Shown here one piece after another: positions 15,604 through 22,467 of a stretch of 64,000 nt of DNA. The notes under the pieces are model-generated. The model searched no databases and was not told the DNA's origin. It saw only the letters and a list, made by a program, of their open reading frames with translations. The stretch is from Candidatus Nanoarchaeia archaeon (lineage in GTDB: Archaea; Nanobdellota; Nanobdellia; Woesearchaeales; GW2011-AR9), in NCBI GenBank assembly GCA_035289385.1, contig DATDXI010000066.1, forward strand, positions 1,548 to 65,547. The letters are read 5' to 3'. The stretch's first letter is position 1. The number at the start of each line of letters is the position of its first letter. Position numbers and translations under genes: made by a program.

Positions 15604-15927
15604 TTAAGATGATAAAAATGCGTGAAACCGCTTTATTAACCACGTATTTTTAGCATGCAAAAATTTCGCCCTAAAGGGTGGGGTTTTACACCCAGCGAAA
15701 TTTTTTGCATAGTAATCAGGAATCAAACTCTTCTGGACCTGCTCTCCTGCGAAAGGATTTTGTTGAAGCCAGCCTTTCACTCGTTCAACAGAGCGAAAAA
15801 TAGATTGGTGAACAGAAGATGTCACTTCTCTTTGCAGCTCATCACCAACAATTCTATTTAACTCATCATATTCCTCTGCAGCTTCTTCAGACAGAATGAC
15901 TTTTATCTCTTTTCCTTTAAACTTCAT
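15604..15927 (-). CDS. RelE/ParE/YoeB-like toxin, apparently frameshifted near its 3' end
   Basis: N-terminal 75 aa are RelE-like (...NPFAGEQVQKSLIPDYYAK). The +1 frame downstream (15450-15640, no start codon) encodes a convincing RelE-fold C-terminus: YGITNLWRINLSDYWRLIYTIQSNEVEIIDFVLNIVDHKEY. Confidence 0.45.
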   Translation of the reverse strand: MKFKGKEIKVILSEEAAEEYDELNRIVGDELQREVTSSVHQSIFRSVERVKGWLQQNPFAGEQVQKSLIPDYYAKNFAGCKTPPFRAKFLHAKNTWLIKRFHAFLSS

Positions 15928-16181
15928 AATTCTGTTCCTCGAGCAATAGCTTCTCGCAGCTTTGGATGATCATTGTGAGTCCAAAGAATCCCCTTGTGCC
16001 CATCGATGATACATCCTTTTTCCTCAAGGTATTCTAGAATTACATTAAGAGTTTGGTGCATGACTTGGGTAGGAAGTCTCTTCTTTAGCTCTTCTCTACT
16101 TATCGTTGTTTCTGCTTCTTGGAGTATTTTCTCTACCATCAGCACTGTTTTCAGGTTTGGATAATGAAGTATTTGTTCCAT
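15924..16181 (-). CDS. Small protein upstream of the RelE-like gene and overlapping it by 4 bp; putative antitoxin
   Basis: 85 aa. The ATGA overlap with the downstream toxin-like gene indicates translational coupling. There is no strong family motif. Confidence 0.35.
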   Translation of the reverse strand: MEQILHYPNLKTVLMVEKILQEAETTISREELKKRLPTQVMHQTLNVILEYLEEKGCIIDGHKGILWTHNDHPKLREAIARGTEL

Positions 16182-16277
16182 TTTGTATAAACTTATCCTA
16201 TAAATAGTATAAGTATATATAAACCTTTTGTTGTTTTTCTGATGGTTTTTTGTTGGAATATTATGATTCTACTTTTT

Positions 16278-17231
16278 TTAATCCGGCACAATCGATAACG
16301 TCGGGAATTCCGTATAGCCAAAGTACTCGTATCCTTTGATTACATCACTAAATCTCTTTACTACTTCTTCCAAGACTTCCAATAAATGGCTCAAATCTCT
16401 TACAACAATCTCTGTCTCAAAATCTGCTCCGCCGATGGACTTATTGATCTGATAAAAATATTTGTGCTGCTTCAGATACTCAAATAACTCCTTATTTCTT
16501 TTCATGGAATTCAATAAAAAATCAACCCTATATCCTTGATAACCCATCTTTTGCAAGTTAGGATTTATTTTATAACCAACAATAATGTTTTCCTTTTCAA
16601 GCCGGATAATTCTTTTTCTTACTGTTTCAGATGAAACCTTCAATTGTTGGGCAATCTTTGTCAATGGTTTTCTGACGTCAATGGCATATAGCTGGATTAT
16701 TTGCTCATCCAATTCATCCACGTCAGCAAGTTGGCCGCTTCCATAAACTCTTTCAATAACTTCTGTCTTTCCGTCCATGAAAAATCTCTTGTTAAAATTA
16801 TGGACTGGCGCGTAGATGGCAATCTTACTCTCTGCAATTTTATCTTTATACCCTAACAGAACATCATTCCATAGTTGATGAAACTTATCTGTTGACTTTA
16901 CGCCCATAAAAAAAGCAAAATCCCATTTCCCATGAAGGACTGTTGTCGTCCAAACATTTTCTTTAATCTTTATTTTTTCATAAAATTCTTTTTTTTGTCC
17001 TTCCGTCATATTCTGCCATCTTAAGTACACACGAAAGGTAAAATACCCTAGCTTTGACATATCCACAATAGCACTACATCCCAGAATGATCTTCTCGTTT
17101 TCTAACCTATGGATGCGAAAATTAACAAACTCTTTTGATCGTTTAACCCTTTTGGCAATGGCTGAAACCGGTTGCGATGAATCTCGTTCCAGCTCAAAAA
17201 GGATCTTCTTATCAAATACATCTAGCTTCAT
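16278..17231 (-). CDS. Tandem-domain Lrp/AsnC-family transcriptional regulator (two HTH+RAM repeats)
   Basis: Two repeats, each with an N-terminal Lrp HTH (DVFDKKILFELERDSSQPVSAIAKRVKRSKEFVNFRIHRLENEKII; DELDEQIIQLYAIDVRKPLTKIAQQLKVSSETVRKRIIRLEKENIIV) followed by RAM-like domains. Confidence 0.75.
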   Translation of the reverse strand: MKLDVFDKKILFELERDSSQPVSAIAKRVKRSKEFVNFRIHRLENEKIILGCSAIVDMSKLGYFTFRVYLRWQNMTEGQKKEFYEKIKIKENVWTTTVLHGKWDFAFFMGVKSTDKFHQLWNDVLLGYKDKIAESKIAIYAPVHNFNKRFFMDGKTEVIERVYGSGQLADVDELDEQIIQLYAIDVRKPLTKIAQQLKVSSETVRKRIIRLEKENIIVGYKINPNLQKMGYQGYRVDFLLNSMKRNKELFEYLKQHKYFYQINKSIGGADFETEIVVRDLSHLLEVLEEVVKRFSDVIKGYEYFGYTEFPTLSIVPD

Positions 17232-17234
17232 TTA

Positions 17235-17726
17235 TTGCTTAAATCCAATAATATTTATAAATTTATTGTTAAAGATAAATATATTGGTAAAAATATTTAT
17301 ATATTGCTCTGTAGCTCCTGTGGAGTTATGACTAGCATCATTGATTACTTAACAACATTTGAATTAACAAATGATCGGGAGAGAGCTTTTTTTAGAACTA
17401 TTGCTTCTCTTCTTGCTTCAGCAGGAAGATCTGTTGTTGATGGTAGTGTAAACCTCTATCAAAAAACGCCGGCAACGGTAAAAGCTGGGATTGTTGCATC
17501 TGCGGTAACAGCAGGAGCTATTCTAGGATATCAAGCACTGACACAGACTACCTCTGATCGGGCTAAATCTGAGGGTACGACTATTTGTATAAATTATTCT
17601 GTCGAACGTGCTCCTCATGCAAGCCCTTTAGATGTTTCAGATTGTGTTACTCCGGAAAGATTAGCTGAGCTTTATCAAGATCCCTATGTAACAATTCGTA
17701 GTGGTAGGCATCCATTTGGTTTTTAA
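17235..17726 (+). CDS. Small hypothetical protein (possible start at ATG 17321)
   Basis: ORF only. Ala/Ser/Thr-rich and possibly secreted. Confidence 0.3.
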   Translation: MLKSNNIYKFIVKDKYIGKNIYILLCSSCGVMTSIIDYLTTFELTNDRERAFFRTIASLLASAGRSVVDGSVNLYQKTPATVKAGIVASAVTAGAILGYQALTQTTSDRAKSEGTTICINYSVERAPHASPLDVSDCVTPERLAELYQDPYVTIRSGRHPFGF

Positions 17727-17747
17727 TGAGGTACATCCAAAAATACT

Positions 17748-18107
17748 ATGATACAAAACAGCATGAGAAGATTAGGAATTGCAGCAATAGCGGCATTGTC
17801 ATTGTATGGTGCAGTCGACTTGGTTAGTACCGTTTATCGCCATCTAACTCCGTCTGAAGAAGCAAAGCCACAGGAGAGATACCAGCTCTTGTTAGGATAT
17901 TGCAATCCCGAATTAAATTCCTGTAGAAGTGCCATCCCCCAAATTACTCTGAGAAGAGAAAGTGATGCTCGAATGTTGTTGGATGTAACCTTTACCAATT
18001 ATTTTGGGAGTAATAGGCCTTATATTCATGCTGTATGGACTGATCCGGAATTATCTGACATGTTAGGTGGGGAATTATCTGTAGTTGTTACAGGAAGTCC
18101 GAGATGA
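17748..18107 (+). CDS. Small secreted hypothetical protein
   Basis: N-terminal signal-like segment (LGIAAIAALSLYGAV). 119 aa. Confidence 0.4.
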   Translation: MIQNSMRRLGIAAIAALSLYGAVDLVSTVYRHLTPSEEAKPQERYQLLLGYCNPELNSCRSAIPQITLRRESDARMLLDVTFTNYFGSNRPYIHAVWTDPELSDMLGGELSVVVTGSPR

Positions 18108-18145
18108 AGTATTGTAATCTTCCTTAATTTACGGAGAGACTATTT

Positions 18146-18300
18146 CTGCGCATTTTAGCATTAACTCATTTGATTAACCGCGCATTTTTACATTAGTTTA
18201 TTAAATATATTAAAATATGTAGGAATAAGCTTAAAATAGCTGAAAATTAACCGCGCATTTTGACATTTATACATTAAAAATAATGCGCATTTTGACAAAG
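18146..18300 (+). promoter_or_regulatory. Four direct copies of a GCGCATTTT(A/T/G)(A/G)CA motif upstream of the RelA/SpoT-domain gene
   Basis: The copies are ctGCGCATTTTAGCAtt (18146-18163), aaccGCGCATTTTTACAtt (18176-18194), aaccGCGCATTTTGACAtt (18249-18267) and aatGCGCATTTTGACAaa (18282-18299). They lie in a 220-bp AT-rich intergenic region ending 30 bp before the ATG. Confidence 0.5.
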
Positions 18301-18330
18301 TTTAAATAATAGATAGTTTTTTACTCACTT

Positions 18331-19398
18331 ATGAAAAAAGTTAATCCAAAAGTATTCTCAAAATCCCGGACAGATTTAGCTGGAGATATATTGTGTAATT
18401 CCCAGAGTTCAGAAGAGGAAAAAGATGAGGCTTTAGAGATATTGAGCAACTGGAGAGGTGCACATAGCTATCCCCTGCATGTTTTTAAACAGCGATTAAA
18501 AAATGTTTCTGAAAAAATAGATCCCTCTGCATTATCAGCACAGCGACTAAAACGTGTCCCTTCTATTATAAAGAAGCTTAACCGGGAATATGGCGGTAAA
18601 AAAGCCACGATGAAATTAACTCAAATGCAAGATATTGCTGGATGTAGGGCCGTTATGTCTAATGTATCATTGGCAAAAAAACTATATTTAGATCATTACA
18701 TAAAGGGTGATATAAAACATAAACGGGTAAATGAAAAAGATTATATCACTCATCCTAAGAAAGACGGGTATAGAAGTATTCATTTAATTTATAGATATCA
18801 TAGTGATAAAAAAGGAAGAATTAATTTCAATGGGTTATTGATTGAAGTCCAGATTAGATCTAAGTTGCAGCATATATGGGCTACAGCAATTGAAACTGTT
18901 GATTTTTTTACAAGACAAGCGATAAAATCAAATCAAGGTCAAGAAGATTGGGCAGATTTTTTTAGATTGGTAAGTTCTGCATTTGCTAAGTTTGAGGGGT
19001 GTCCAACAATACCAGAAACACCAACAGATGAAGAAGAACTCTACAAAATGATTAAGCAAAAAGAGATGGAGCTTCAGGTTAGAATAAAGATGAATCGTTG
19101 GGCAAAATCACTCAAGCTTTTTGATAATTTAAAAAATAAAAAGAATTTTCACTTTTTTCTATTGGAATTAGATACCATTCAAGAAAAACTAACTATCTCT
19201 GCATACTCCAAAAGACAAGAGCAAAAAGCTATCTTCGATTATGCAGCGGCTGAGAAAAAGATTTATGGCAGGGGAGAGTATGATGTTGTTCTAGTAGGTG
19301 CAGATACTGTTAAAGATTTGAAAAAAGCTTATCCCAATTACTTTCTTGATACTAAAGAATTCCTAATTAATCTTAATAAAGTTCTCAATAAACATTGA
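18331..19398 (+). CDS. RelA/SpoT-domain protein (small alarmone synthetase / toxSAS-like nucleotide pyrophosphokinase)
   Basis: Synthetase-domain signatures: MQDIAGCRAVMSNVSLAKKLY, KKDGYRSIHLIYRYHSD and LIEVQIRSKLQHIWATAIE, equivalent to the DIAG.R, GYRSLH and EVQIRT..QH.WA motifs of RelA/SpoT synthetase domains. The protein has about 155 extra C-terminal residues and no hydrolase domain. Confidence 0.75.
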   Translation: MKKVNPKVFSKSRTDLAGDILCNSQSSEEEKDEALEILSNWRGAHSYPLHVFKQRLKNVSEKIDPSALSAQRLKRVPSIIKKLNREYGGKKATMKLTQMQDIAGCRAVMSNVSLAKKLYLDHYIKGDIKHKRVNEKDYITHPKKDGYRSIHLIYRYHSDKKGRINFNGLLIEVQIRSKLQHIWATAIETVDFFTRQAIKSNQGQEDWADFFRLVSSAFAKFEGCPTIPETPTDEEELYKMIKQKEMELQVRIKMNRWAKSLKLFDNLKNKKNFHFFLLELDTIQEKLTISAYSKRQEQKAIFDYAAAEKKIYGRGEYDVVLVGADTVKDLKKAYPNYFLDTKEFLINLNKVLNKH

Positions 19399-19436
19399 GT
19401 TCTAATTATACTTATCTAATTAATCCCGTCGTAGAT

Positions 19437-20420
19437 TCATTTCCCAACTTTCAGCATCTCTTGATACGCCGGCATCCACGTTTCATAGATCATGATCAAG
19501 TGCTCGTAATTTCTTATGACGTGGGGAAAATGCATTCGGAGATCATTAATTATCTTGTTAAAATGCTGATAACTTTCTACGGCAAATTCAAATTCAACTT
19601 CCCAAGGGGCTAAGCTTCGGATGTAATAGAGGGAGTTAGGATGCCTTTTCATCCATTCAAATAATGCTCGTTCATCTTTCTCTGATAATGTCCTAAAATA
19701 AATAATAGCTTTAAAAAATTCTAATCCTAATTTATTTAAGTCAACTGCTATCCTATAGCTCAATATAATCTCTTTCTCCTCTAATTTTCTAATTCTTCCC
19801 CGAACTATCTCAATAGTTGAACTAACTTTTCGGGCTAATTCAGCAAGAGGAACTCTGGCATCATTGGCTAAGATGTTCAATATTTTAGAATCTACATCAT
19901 CTATAGTATTATGGACAACATCTCCTCCAAAAACAATATATTGGCCATCTTTTGAATCGGTGAAGAATTTTTTGGTATATTGTCTCGTATCTACCATCGT
20001 TCCAAGGATTTTACTTACAATAAGATGCTGCCATCTTGAAAGCAAATAATTTATTTTAGTGAAATAATCAGGTATATTTTTGGATAAAATAGCAAAAACA
20101 ACATCAAAAGCGCCGTCTGAAATCCCCATCCAATAAATGTCTGGATTTTTTTTTAGCTCTTCAAAGAACTTCTCTCGTTCTTCAGGAATATTTTCTAGCT
20201 TTAGATATACTTTAAACATGTAATATCCTAATTTGTTGGGGTTTATCGAGGTGATGAATTTCTCGATGATGCCTCTTTTTTGCAATTGTTGAATCCTATA
20301 TTTTACTGATTCTCGGGATTTATTTACTTTCTTGGCTAGGGCAATGTTGGAAATGCGGCAGTTCTTATCAAGTTCTGCCAATATTTTTCTATCCGTTAAA
20401 TCTAGGTTATATTTCTCCAT
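19437..20420 (-). CDS. Tandem-domain Lrp/AsnC-family transcriptional regulator, paralog of 16278-17231
   Basis: LTDRKILAELDKNCRISNIALAKKVNKSRESVKYRIQQLQKRGII plus RAM, then a second HTH DVDSKILNILANDARVPLAELARKVSSTIEIVRGRIRKLEEKEII plus RAM. Confidence 0.75.
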   Translation of the reverse strand: MEKYNLDLTDRKILAELDKNCRISNIALAKKVNKSRESVKYRIQQLQKRGIIEKFITSINPNKLGYYMFKVYLKLENIPEEREKFFEELKKNPDIYWMGISDGAFDVVFAILSKNIPDYFTKINYLLSRWQHLIVSKILGTMVDTRQYTKKFFTDSKDGQYIVFGGDVVHNTIDDVDSKILNILANDARVPLAELARKVSSTIEIVRGRIRKLEEKEIILSYRIAVDLNKLGLEFFKAIIYFRTLSEKDERALFEWMKRHPNSLYYIRSLAPWEVEFEFAVESYQHFNKIINDLRMHFPHVIRNYEHLIMIYETWMPAYQEMLKVGK

Positions 20421-20506
20421 TTTTGTCCAAAAGTTGTATTTTTATATAAATCTTTCTATAAAACGGTTAAAATTATAAAATAAGTTTATTATACTTGTAG
20501 TCACTA

Positions 20507-21904
20507 TTGGGTAGTATGAAAATTGATTTGATTCAGCCAAGACACAATTATGCACCCAAAGAAGGAATAGGGCATATCTATATGCCCACTTCTTTGTTAA
20601 CCGTAGGAGCAAGACTAGTCAATGCAGGAGTTGATGTCACATTTCATGATGAGAATATAACCCCTGCACAAATCTCCTCTGATTATGTTGGCTCTAATCT
20701 GTTGGGAGCGCCATATATTCCTGAAGTGATACAATTACAAGATCGGATTAGGAAGGAAGCTGGAGAAAAAACATTTTTTGTTGGTGGGCAAGTTGTTTCC
20801 GGATTAACTTCCGATCAATTGCAACGACTATTTGGAGATTCAACACATACGGGAAATGATGATTCTACATTAGCAAGAGTTCTGGGTATAGGTCAAAGAG
20901 CATTGGTTTCTCCAGAGAAAACTTCACTTATTCCTGCCTATGAACTGTTAGGAGATGCGGCAATGAAAGAATATCTTTCCAGAGAATTTTCTTTGTATGT
21001 TTCCCAAGGATGTGAAAAAGCCTGCAGTTTTTGCGGAGCGGACAGAACAACAAAAAATCCATTGACGGGGAAAACCAGGAAGGTCAGCGAGCGTTATAGA
21101 GATATTGGCATCATCCAGGATGATTTGAAGTATTTGGTAAATACGGCAGATTCATTTGGCATAGATCATTTAGATATGTATATGTCTAATTTAGATGTAT
21201 TCCAGACGCCTGGCCAATTGCTCCGATTCGCTTATGCTGTACAGGAAGTTCAGCAGGCTAATCCCAGTGTTAAGATCAATCTTCGTGGTTTAGCGACAGT
21301 GGAGCATTTCTTAAAAACGAGAAAAGGCATGCCAAAAAGTATTGAAGAGCTCGTCAAAGCCGGCTTCTATACTGTTGGCTTTGGTGTTGATGGCTGGGGC
21401 AAAGAGGAATGGGCTGCCTTGAGAAAAGGGCATAATACTGAAGAAGGCTGTTTGGAAGCAATCAGGTCTACAAGAGAGGATTTTGGCATCACTCCAGAAA
21501 TATTAATGGTATTTGGCAATCCCAGAACAACTAAAGAAAAGACCATCAGGGCAGCATTCGAAGTGACTGAAATGGTCGTTGAAGAGTATGGCGCAGTTCC
21601 AAGGCCGCATGTTTCTAAGGATTTTATTCCGGGAAATGAAGGCTGGATGGCTTTGGAATATGCTGCTGCCATAGAAGATTTACTGCAGCATCCGGAATCA
21701 TTTCAATCCCTTGATTTTACGGCGCTTCCTTCTCCGTCAACGCATCCTGATGAAACAGTGAGGGCATTAGCCACAGAATACTTTTTGAAGATGTGCGAAC
21801 TACCTGGGAACACAACGCTGCATGTCCAGCCAATAACTCCAGACATGACTCCTGAGCAAGTGGAAGCAGTGCGGCAATTTAACCAAGGAAGATATGACCG
21901 GTAG
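20507..21904 (+). CDS. Radical SAM protein with N-terminal B12-binding-like domain (class-B-like)
   Basis: The CX3CX2C motif SQGCEKACSFCGA lies about 170 aa into the protein. The N-terminal 150 aa are Rossmann-like. Confidence 0.65.
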   Translation: MGSMKIDLIQPRHNYAPKEGIGHIYMPTSLLTVGARLVNAGVDVTFHDENITPAQISSDYVGSNLLGAPYIPEVIQLQDRIRKEAGEKTFFVGGQVVSGLTSDQLQRLFGDSTHTGNDDSTLARVLGIGQRALVSPEKTSLIPAYELLGDAAMKEYLSREFSLYVSQGCEKACSFCGADRTTKNPLTGKTRKVSERYRDIGIIQDDLKYLVNTADSFGIDHLDMYMSNLDVFQTPGQLLRFAYAVQEVQQANPSVKINLRGLATVEHFLKTRKGMPKSIEELVKAGFYTVGFGVDGWGKEEWAALRKGHNTEEGCLEAIRSTREDFGITPEILMVFGNPRTTKEKTIRAAFEVTEMVVEEYGAVPRPHVSKDFIPGNEGWMALEYAAAIEDLLQHPESFQSLDFTALPSPSTHPDETVRALATEYFLKMCELPGNTTLHVQPITPDMTPEQVEAVRQFNQGRYDR

Positions 21905-22044: not shown

Positions 22045-22467
22045 TTGTTTCCTTTAGTCATGGAAAAAGAGATAAAATATCCTACTGTAGAGCAAATCAT
22101 AGAGTACAACGTCTTGGCTATTACATTGATAAAAGTAAAAAAAGCTGATTGTCCACAAGTCCTCAGCCATGCAAGGATAGAGCTCATTATTAAGAATTGT
22201 AAAGAGCTGGATGAAAATTTATATGATAAAGCAGTGTGCTTGTTGAAGGGAATAATTCAATTACACCCATTTGCGAGCGGAAACAGAAGAACGGCGTTTG
22301 TTGTTGCAAAGGAATTCTTGAAAGAAAACGGAGGAAAGTTTAATATAGACGATGACCCTAAACAAGCTAAGGTAATGTTAGGGATACGCGAAAAATATTA
22401 TACTGATAAGGAAATTAAGGAGTGGATTCAACATGGAAAAATCAAAGAGTTCAAAAGATTTGAATGA
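22045..22467 (+). CDS. Doc/Fic-family toxin-like protein
   Basis: The motif HPFASGNRRTAFVVAKEFL matches the Doc variant of the Fic motif (H.F.(D/N)(A/G)N(K/R)RTA). The 140-aa size is typical of Doc. Confidence 0.6.
   Translation: MFPLVMEKEIKYPTVEQIIEYNVLAITLIKVKKADCPQVLSHARIELIIKNCKELDENLYDKAVCLLKGIIQLHPFASGNRRTAFVVAKEFLKENGGKFNIDDDPKQAKVMLGIREKYYTDKEIKEWIQHGKIKEFKRFE

Follow-up and report, generated by a model that had tools for sequence, protein, structure and literature searches.

The stretch of DNA analysed here (hereafter the window) comprises 64,000 nucleotides of contig DATDXI010000066.1 from a Candidatus Nanoarchaeia archaeon, and the element in question is a gene for a 355-residue protein with a RelA/SpoT domain, together with four short repeats in front of it. 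The gene is an open reading frame (ORF) with an ATG start on the forward strand (18331-19398); the start given earlier, 18121, falls inside the 223-bp spacer on its 5' side. The window is archaeal: an identical protein is named 'Candidatus Nanoarchaeia archaeon' at NCBI, and genes for Nre, Rpb4 and ribosomal protein L21e lie near the locus on an independent contig with the same sequence. As the original prediction had it, the gene is bracketed by two paralogous regulators of the tandem-Lrp type, both encoded on the reverse strand (16278-17231 and 19437-20420), each of which carries two HTH_AsnC domains (i.e. tandem Lrp/AsnC) and which are 29% identical to each other over ~300 aa.

The synthetase domain without an HD hydrolase domain that had been read from the sequence is borne out by the profile searches. 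RelA_SpoT (PF04607) is the sole Pfam family on the protein at E <= 0.01 (residues 71-185, 69.2 bits versus a cut-off of 27, E 4.7e-19), no HD hydrolase, TGS or ACT domain being found at that threshold, and TIGR00691 (spoT_relA) scores 20 bits versus a cut-off of 499. The best relatives of solved structure are those of CapRel-SJ46 (PDB 7ZTB and 9ERV), a fused toxSAS toxin-antitoxin of Salmonella prophage SJ46 that serves antiphage defence and pyrophosphorylates tRNA. The match extends over query residues 9-345 against residues 15-363 of the chain (E 8.2e-47), while BLASTP against the CapRel-SJ46 gene product gives 34% identity (E 3e-53). The same two structures head the Foldseek results (E 4.5e-23, template modelling (TM) score 0.69-0.72, ~356 columns) obtained with an AlphaFold2 (AF2) model from a 77-sequence alignment, which has a predicted local distance difference test score (pLDDT) of 84.6 and a predicted TM score of 0.82 (an earlier model from 23 near-identical sequences had a pLDDT of 68.7 and a poor C-terminus); RelP and RelQ follow far behind and cover the N-terminal half only. 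End-to-end matches were also obtained to two computational families without a described function, namely PADLOC PDC-S33, a single-gene phage-defence candidate (E 1e-113, residues 7-352 versus profile positions 6-342 of 349), and PHROG 4773 (E 1.8e-96). With a full-length CapRel-SJ46 homologue found in profile, BLASTP and Foldseek comparisons alike, the toxSAS/CapRel-type assignment proposed earlier holds, and the protein is almost certainly of the CapRel type.

The C-terminal extension of 155 aa had been guessed to be a pseudo-zinc-finger, antitoxin-like domain, and this agrees with the CapRel homology in that region as well as with the model. In the latter, a toxSYNTH fold is followed by linker helices, three strands (273-281, 286-293 and 317-323) with a helix at 294-311, and a YPNY motif at the hinge between two terminal helices, and the C-terminal topology matches that of the pseudo-zinc-finger domain of CapRel-SJ46 as described (PMC9712102). 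Because of the full-length match and the modelled topology, the tail can be read as the CapRel linker plus the pseudo-zinc-finger antitoxin/sensor domain, the segment itself containing no Cys. In the BLASTP alignment, the ATP-site arginines R79 and R116 of CapRel-SJ46 correspond to R72 and R106, and the G-loop tyrosine Y155, the substitution of which by alanine (Y155A) abolishes defence in CapRel-SJ46 (PMC9712102), corresponds to Y147. The YXXY motif Y352/Y355 falls on Y334/Y337, and of the residues that form its scaffold A77, V338, L339 and A351 fall on A70, V320, L321 and A333, with A341 replaced by G323. Y147, R72 and R106, as well as Y334-P-N-Y337, are invariant in 86 family members, and A70, V320, L321 and A333 are invariant or nearly so in the clade. 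With a mean sum f^2 of 0.60 compared to 0.72, the C-terminal region as a whole is less conserved than the core, though its conservation across phyla is still good. The protein thus shares with CapRel-SJ46, over its full length, the toxSYNTH domain, the helical linker, the three-stranded pseudo-zinc-finger domain and the C-terminal anchor helices, along with the G-loop tyrosine, the ATP-site arginines, the YXXY plug and the interface residues. It differs in being only 34% identical and in its DPANN host and archaeal TATA promoter.

The protein could instead be an ordinary small alarmone synthetase (SAS) that makes (p)ppGpp, in which case the repeats would regulate a housekeeping gene. Relatives are annotated as 'ppGpp synthetase' in their sources, RelA/SpoT genes of DPANN archaea have been read in this way (PMC8407392), and structures of RelP and RelQ (YwaC/YjbM), which have the same synthetase fold and catalytic core, are the next-best matches after CapRel. 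These enzymes match only residues ~61-191, however, with E-values of 1e-8 to 1e-11 compared to 8e-47 over the full length for CapRel, and are ~210-230 aa long without a C-terminal antitoxin domain, whereas the archaeal protein has 355 aa and a structured C-terminal domain in which the YXXY plug is present and invariant. The best matches are therefore not housekeeping RelP/RelQ enzymes, as is also apparent from the NCBIfam equivalog for YjbM (NF053588), which scores 54.6 bits versus a cut-off of 320. Moreover, the neighbourhood of the gene contains no conserved hydrolase partner. A housekeeping alarmone synthetase is accordingly considered very improbable.

The second component of the locus is the repeat array. 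Four copies of GCGCATTTTNRCA occur in the 223-bp spacer and none elsewhere in the window, which confirms the four upstream motif copies noted earlier and shows that they are unique to the spacer within the 64 kb. The pattern GCGCATTTT starts at 18148, 18180, 18253 and 18285, always on the forward strand, and these are its sole copies in the window (0.79 expected by chance), while the longer motif GCGCAWWWWNRCA finds the same four matches (0.20 expected), a number that none of 100 shuffles reached. With start-to-start spacings of 32, 73 and 32 bp, the copies form two double-site units of 45 nt that lie 105 bp apart (Table 1), and the most distal site has its counterpart in related loci, e.g. 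at -187 in L003 and L040 (family loci are cited by such numbers). No Shine-Dalgarno sequence follows the TATA box, which makes a leaderless mRNA likely. Neither the rest of the window nor ~730 kb of flanks of the family loci contains paired sites, and a regulon is accordingly not indicated. Two other readings of the repeats were tried and rejected: they do not behave as transposon ends or inverted repeats (no reverse copies occur downstream of the gene, and the reverse-strand matches are only palindromic TGCGCA), and tRNA mimicry by the core is not apparent, the 3' end of the tRNA-Met in the window (CCTCCGCTA) being unlike it.

Table 1. Coordinates in the window of the CapRel-type gene, its domains and residues, and the putative promoter-operator elements
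Feature	Position	Strand	Remarks
CapRel-type fused toxSAS toxin-antitoxin gene	18331..19398	+	355 aa; profile, structure-relative and Foldseek matches
toxSYNTH (RelA/SpoT nucleotide pyrophosphokinase) domain	18421..18930	+	~aa 31-200; Pfam 71-185, mapping onto CapRel-SJ46
toxSYNTH domain residues	R72, D101, R106, G-loop Y147 (18769-18771), E172	+	R79/R116/Y155 of CapRel-SJ46 mapped
Asp127 codon (GAT)	18709..18711	+	Proposed base-reading residue; co-varies with CC prefix of core
Asp159 codon (GAT), S-D-K loop	18805..18807	+	Proposed base-reading residue; co-varies with third core base (GCGCA versus GCCCA)
Pseudo-zinc-finger (antitoxin/sensor) domain	19147..19299	+	aa 273-323; three strands, helix between strands 2 and 3; AF2 model
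YXXY autoinhibition motif Y334-P-N-Y337	19330..19341	+	Hinge between last two helices; Y352/Y355 of CapRel-SJ46
Operator-like site 1 CTGCGCATTTTAGCA	18146..18160	+	Most distal, -183 from ATG
Operator-like site 2 CCGCGCATTTTTACA	18178..18192	+	32 bp from site 1; full family core CCGCGCA
Operator-like site 3 CCGCGCATTTTGACA	18251..18265	+	73 bp from site 2; full family core CCGCGCA
Operator-like site 4 ATGCGCATTTTGACA	18283..18297	+	Proximal, -46 from ATG; GCGCA starts 16 bp upstream of TATA box
Archaeal TATA box TTTAAATA	18301..18308	+	-30 from ATG

The array is not peculiar to this locus but is retained in front of ~90 related genes. Within 320 nt upstream of the gene, two to five copies of GC[GC]CA are present in 72 of the 78 family loci with a usable start, so that the repeats, as regards their conservation in related genomes, recur upstream of homologues in dozens of them. 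A site usually reads (A)ACCGCGCA, with an A/T-rich stretch and often GACA after it. On the strand of the gene, C[CT]GC[GC]CA reaches 9.26 per kb in the 230 nt upstream, compared to 0.12 per kb elsewhere, and its orientation is almost uniform (162 forward versus 6 reverse). The spacings between sites fall into discrete classes, i.e. 31-33 bp (68 times), 53-55 bp (39 times), 73-74, 84, 93-98 and 106-109 bp, for which the best period is 10.6-10.8 bp (R ~0.74; Rayleigh p ~1e-28 even on 55 distinct architectures). As the spacings are multiples of ~10.7 bp, the sites lie on one face of B-DNA. The arrangement relative to the promoter is likewise recurrent: the proximal site is at -43 to -47 from the ATG in most loci, TTTAWAWA is found at -28 to -32 in 58 of 79 family loci, and the distance from site start to TATA is 14-15 bp in 45 of 59. 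In one clade an extra site occurs at -10 to -13, between the TATA box and the ATG. Taken together, the array is very likely a protein-bound DNA element of this promoter.

As a side observation, whole promoter-operator units are tandemly duplicated in L011, L012 and L048, ~260 nt upstream of the gene; the duplicated unit measures ~84 bp in the first two and 97 bp in L048 (sites at -182, -138, -85 and -41). This shows how arrays grow.

Could the repeats act as RNA rather than as DNA? In type III systems, the repeats of the toxI RNA bind ToxN, and a transcript from a promoter further upstream could analogously provide an antitoxin or decoy, or else a 5' regulatory element. Such an RNA would account for repeats that precede a toxin gene and share its orientation (the 162 forward copies versus 6), and the covariation between protein and repeats that is described below equally fits protein-RNA recognition; to judge from the reference list of PMC11782079, SAS enzymes may bind single-stranded RNA. 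Spacing in quanta of ~10.7 bp, however, is a property of double-stranded B-DNA that RNA leaves unexplained, and the fixed distance of 14-15 bp to the TATA box puts the proximal copy outside the transcript predicted from that promoter. Nor do the copies form a uniform tandem array (32/73/32 bp in the window), and they are separated by sequence without conservation. The predicted fold of the upstream region is no more stable than that of shuffled controls (z -1.15), and a search of the spacer against Rfam gave nothing at E <= 1. An RNA function is therefore unlikely.

What points to the protein that binds the array is the covariation of the repeats with two residues of the CapRel-like protein itself (residue numbers are those of the window protein). 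In part of the family the core is GCCCA instead of GCGCA, and the copies within a locus switch together. In a first sample, the 66 GCGCA loci all had Asp at residue 159, and the 6 GCCCA loci all had Asn, Lys or His there. Two blind tests followed this rule. Of 120 proteins, three have no Asp159 (P0041, His; P0058 and P0110, both Asn), and all three contigs carry CCGCCCA arrays. Five more proteins without Asp159, found with a divergent query, all have C at the core position (5/5); this set includes two proteins with mixed arrays and one lineage with a single CCGCCTA site. Counted by site, the 68 loci with Asp159 hold 168 GCGCA, 1 GCCCA, 2 GCCTA and 13 other sites of the loose pattern, versus 2 GCGCA, 29 GCCCA, 3 GCCTA and 3 others (2 GCTTA, 1 GCTCA) in the 14 loci with Asn, Lys or His. 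On an 89-taxon tree, parsimony gives ~10 independent changes at residue 159, and ~10 independent switches of the core each coincide with such a change.

A metagenome scan for cores without G (pattern GCHCA plus TATA) returned 14 loci, five of which are family members with GCCCA arrays; four of these have N159, and the fifth (L106) is truncated at 55 aa, so that residue 159 is unreadable. A further GCCCA array (L103) is on a contig that ends before the gene is reached, the remaining eight loci have single matches due to chance and lack the CapRel-like gene, and GCACA or GCTCA arrays do not occur among the 14. In a side lineage (L112 and L116), a single CCGCCTA site stands beside the TATA box ~50 nt upstream of the gene, and the loop reads S-K-N-K (K159, N160); there may be a third residue-base pair here, K160N with C-to-T at core position 4, in this one lineage only.

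The second pair concerns residue 127 and the CC prefix of the core. In loci with Asp127, C is found at -2 in 158 of 190 sites and the full CC prefix in 123, compared to 7 of 31 and 0 of 31, respectively, in those 11 loci with usable sites where the residue is Asn, His, Thr, Ser, Phe or Gly instead (Fisher p 4e-11; ~10-11 independent changes), while a locus with Glu127 keeps CCGCGCA. Both residues stand out from the rest of the protein, with a normalised mutual information of 0.81 for residue 159 and the core position (next column 0.29), and of 0.45 for residue 127 and the prefix (next column 0.22). Covariation was also sought for the 3' flank (ATTTT, AAAAC or AATTT), but the best columns there (97 and 260) follow the split into two clades and were not counted as evidence. 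In both pairs found here, a carboxylate accompanies a C:G pair and a hydrogen-bond donor residue or none accompanies its replacement, the flipped pair at the core position being matched by Asn, Lys or His; this fits the known chemistry of base contacts. Since the core changes in step with residues 127 and 159, the protein probably binds its own promoter, and the CapRel-like protein is the likely binder of the repeats.

The original prediction had a different binder in mind, i.e. the flanking Lrp paralogues, and more generally a host transcription factor or chromatin protein might bind the repeats, the covariation then being indirect or coincidental. Octamers of the Lrp family typically bind helically phased sites at intervals of about three turns, which suits the phasing seen here, and archaeal activators and repressors bind just upstream of the B recognition element (BRE) and TATA box, where a site is found; the gene has a tandem-Lrp gene on either side, and an Lrp2-like gene adjoins the homologue in L065. 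Against this, tblastn with the window neighbours finds a tandem Lrp adjacent in only 1-2 of 80 other loci (L065, and in part L020), and all-against-all clustering of 1,424 neighbour ORFs yields no family common to more than 4 of 78 loci. The Lrp idea fails because no neighbouring gene is conserved. A single host factor is also not expected for an array shared by at least eight archaeal lineages and Patescibacteria-labelled contigs, no further paired sites occur in the window or in ~730 kb of flanks, and ~10 core switches that coincide with residue 159 are very hard to explain without a physical link. Hence, of the earlier proposal, the conserved operator-like element is real while its link to Lrp does not stand, and a host factor as the binder is quite improbable.

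The explanation favoured is that the gene is a DPANN representative of the CapRel type, the product of which binds and controls its own promoter array; the probability of this explanation as a whole is put at roughly 65%. In bacterial CapRel, the enzyme pyrophosphorylates the 3' CCA end of tRNA, by which translation is stopped, and the ATP site is plugged by the YXXY motif of the sensor for as long as no viral protein pulls the motif away. The archaeal protein would likewise join an N-terminal toxSYNTH enzyme and a C-terminal pseudo-zinc-finger antitoxin/sensor in one polypeptide. The four upstream repeats would be the gene's own operator, with CCGCGCA-core sites on one helix face and the proximal site abutting the BRE/TATA of a leaderless archaeal promoter. 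Within the toxSYNTH domain, the loop K-G-D-L-K-H-K around residue 127 would read the CC prefix and the loop S-D-K-x-G-K around residue 159 the central G:C pair, and binding would probably be cooperative across sites that are 3-10 helical turns apart. Negative autoregulation is the most likely outcome, since BRE and TATA box, and in one clade the transcription start as well, are flanked by sites, with repression as such being slightly favoured; in this way, the amount of a potentially lethal enzyme could be kept low and constant. As a self-contained cassette, the gene and its operator could also move between hosts together.

A more far-reaching version holds that the RelA/SpoT catalytic domain has turned into a sequence-specific DNA reader, that residues 127 and 159 set the operator by a residue-to-base rule, that the promoter is self-repressed, and that its occupancy is possibly coupled to activation. 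Such coupling is conceivable because the reader shares the domain that is opened and closed by the antitoxin part, in which case the same viral trigger that unleashes the enzyme would also derepress the gene. In this complete form the proposal is tentative and rather doubtful.

Several points weigh against self-binding and self-control as set out above. The binding of the repeats by the protein is inferred from covariation, which is an indirect basis. Six family loci have no array, three of which are contig ends while three genuinely lack it, and such repeats are absent upstream of CapRel-SJ46 and of seven viral-contig homologues (34-40% identity); the array is therefore a feature of the clade and not a property of the whole family. 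Two loci that are both non-Asp159 (L110 and L113) carry mixed GCCCA and GCGCA arrays, and one Ser127 locus, which is ambiguous, retains C at -2 with a CT prefix at both sites, from which it follows that specificity at the level of single sites is not absolute. The mixed arrays may be transitional states, or Lys or Asn at position 159 may give relaxed specificity. From the strand order in the AF2 model (131-137, G-loop, 150-155, loop, 170-177), the loops around residues 127 and 159 should share an exposed edge at that end of the sheet which is opposite the G-loop and away from the active site; this is a purely topological argument. Furthermore, the co-varying residues are in the enzyme domain, whereas the precedent for DNA binding is a pseudo-zinc-finger domain: ATfaRel2, the antitoxin of the toxSAS FaRel2, binds a 150-bp fragment of its own promoter with a Kd of 484 nM (PMC10565793). 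Lastly, tRNA targeting and an antiviral function are extrapolated from proteins that are only 34% identical, and toxicity is likewise inferred from homology.

The comparison with known systems makes clear in which respects the predicted system would be unusual. FaRel2/ATfaRel2 of Coprobacillus is a bicistronic type II toxSAS that targets tRNA and in which a pseudo-zinc-finger element bearing a YXXY motif neutralises the toxin; there, the two proteins are separate and the free antitoxin binds DNA, whereas here there is a single chain and the residues that track the operator are in the enzyme domain. CapRel-SJ46 itself has no counterpart of the phased CCGCGCA operator array of the archaeal clade, and it has R135 at the position of Asp127 and an acidic FDEENG at that of the S-D-K loop. 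In classical type II toxin-antitoxin systems (RelBE, Phd/Doc, MazEF), the system's own product binds repeated operator sites that overlap the promoter. The repeated sites at the toxin unit's own promoter, with own-product binding as predicted here, resemble such autoregulation, but they are direct repeats 3-10 helical turns apart, and the putative reader is the catalytic domain of the toxin, there being no dedicated DNA-binding domain. The CapRel family as such is known; what is new is the conserved phased operator and the residue-to-base covariation, with the specificity determinants mapping to the enzyme domain.

With respect to distribution, a protein search returned 4,052 proteins at E <= 1e-5. 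The best 120 are without exception full length, with identities of 66-100%, and where an organism is named it is mostly from a DPANN lineage, a few being Patescibacteria. A scan with one genome per species found close relatives in 229 species-representative genomes. Among the best 80 of these, 74 have an archaeal label (Woese-, Nano-, Pace-, Aenigmat-, Iain- and Micrarchaeota, Nanohaloarchaea, Methanoperedens and Nitrososphaera). Early surveys of RelA/SpoT homologues (RSH) had almost no archaeal members (PMC3153485) and CapRel has been described as bacterial (bioRxiv 575399), while RelA/SpoT genes were later reported in 19-69% of the genomes of four DPANN phyla and read as stringent-response enzymes of bacterial origin (PMC8407392). 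In view of the latter figures and the present counts, the statement that such genes are uncommon in archaea is outdated; the CapRel-type clade is common in DPANN archaea. A literature search found no paper linking DPANN to toxSAS or CapRel, and none mentioning PDC-S33.

The remaining six of the best 80 loci (L008, L011, L012, L015, L019 and L028) have a bacterial label, taken as given: Patescibacteria, Dojkabacteria, 'bacterium' and two 'Gammaproteobacteria' metagenome-assembled genomes with only 29-30% GC. They have the same operator core, except for L028 (Dojkabacteria), which has no GCGCA or GCCCA sites upstream.

The patchy distribution of the CapRel-like gene and its varied genomic contexts, together with the low GC content of the region in the window, also argue against an ordinary alarmone synthetase, as do the toxin and abortive-infection genes nearby (AbiEii and ParE beside homologues, Doc/Fic in the window). 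The low-GC island (16001-21000; 0.33-0.35 versus 0.41-0.44 in the flanks) spans both tandem-Lrp genes and the CapRel-like gene, which would be in line with horizontal acquisition. A tRNA gene lies ~200 nt upstream of the start of the cassette in three unrelated loci, namely that for His (L019, 24-95), Ser (L021, 5696-5781) and Leu (L025, 5727-5812), which hints at insertion of the cassette at tRNA genes. Neighbours of homologues include an rve integrase fragment and a DUF6922 plus AbiEii pair (L084; 1-660 and 2855-3711), as well as a ParE toxin with a small partner (L086, 131-550); these neighbourhoods are mobile-element or defence-island contexts.

Closer to the gene in the window, two small ORFs precede it (17331-17726 and 17748-18107). 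They had been noted as genes, and they are indeed called as such on an independent contig with the same sequence, yet they cannot be counted as part of the unit, as no relatives of theirs occur beside homologous genes in other loci; profile searches gave no family match for either. Two short ORFs on the reverse strand (15604-16181), which encode 85 and 107 aa, share 4 nt, an arrangement reminiscent of toxin-antitoxin pairs. The product of 107 aa has no family match; that of 85 aa matches HTH_52 weakly (E 0.0037), and a relative of its ORF (40% identity) lies directly downstream of the CapRel-like gene in L029. A 140-aa Fic/DOC-family protein (PF02661, E 5e-8) is encoded at 22045-22467 (+), in a second low-GC patch (0.346). 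The ORF pair, the CapRel-like gene and the Fic/DOC gene together suggest a small toxin/defence island of ~15.6-22.5 kb. In between, at 20507-21904 (+) and divergent from the second Lrp gene, lies a gene for a 465-aa radical-SAM-like protein (the PF04055 match is weak, at 26 bits and under the cut-off), the adjacency being kept on the independent contigs L001 and L002.

If the residues do read the bases, this would be the first known case of sequence-specific DNA binding by an RSH enzyme domain, and an example of how a fused toxin-antitoxin can control its own expression although it has no dedicated DNA-binding domain. The natural variants (Asp159 with GCGCA; Asn, Lys or His159 with GCCCA; Asp or Glu127 with CC) constitute a ready-made, testable pair for protein-DNA recognition, and the compact and portable archaeal promoter-operator cassette may be of use in DPANN and archaeal genetics. 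For the organisms themselves, a DPANN gene that has been taken as evidence of a stringent response would instead be an abortive-infection toxin of the CapRel type and, with the gene being present in a large share of DPANN genomes, this reading bears on how these tiny symbiotic archaea deal with viruses.

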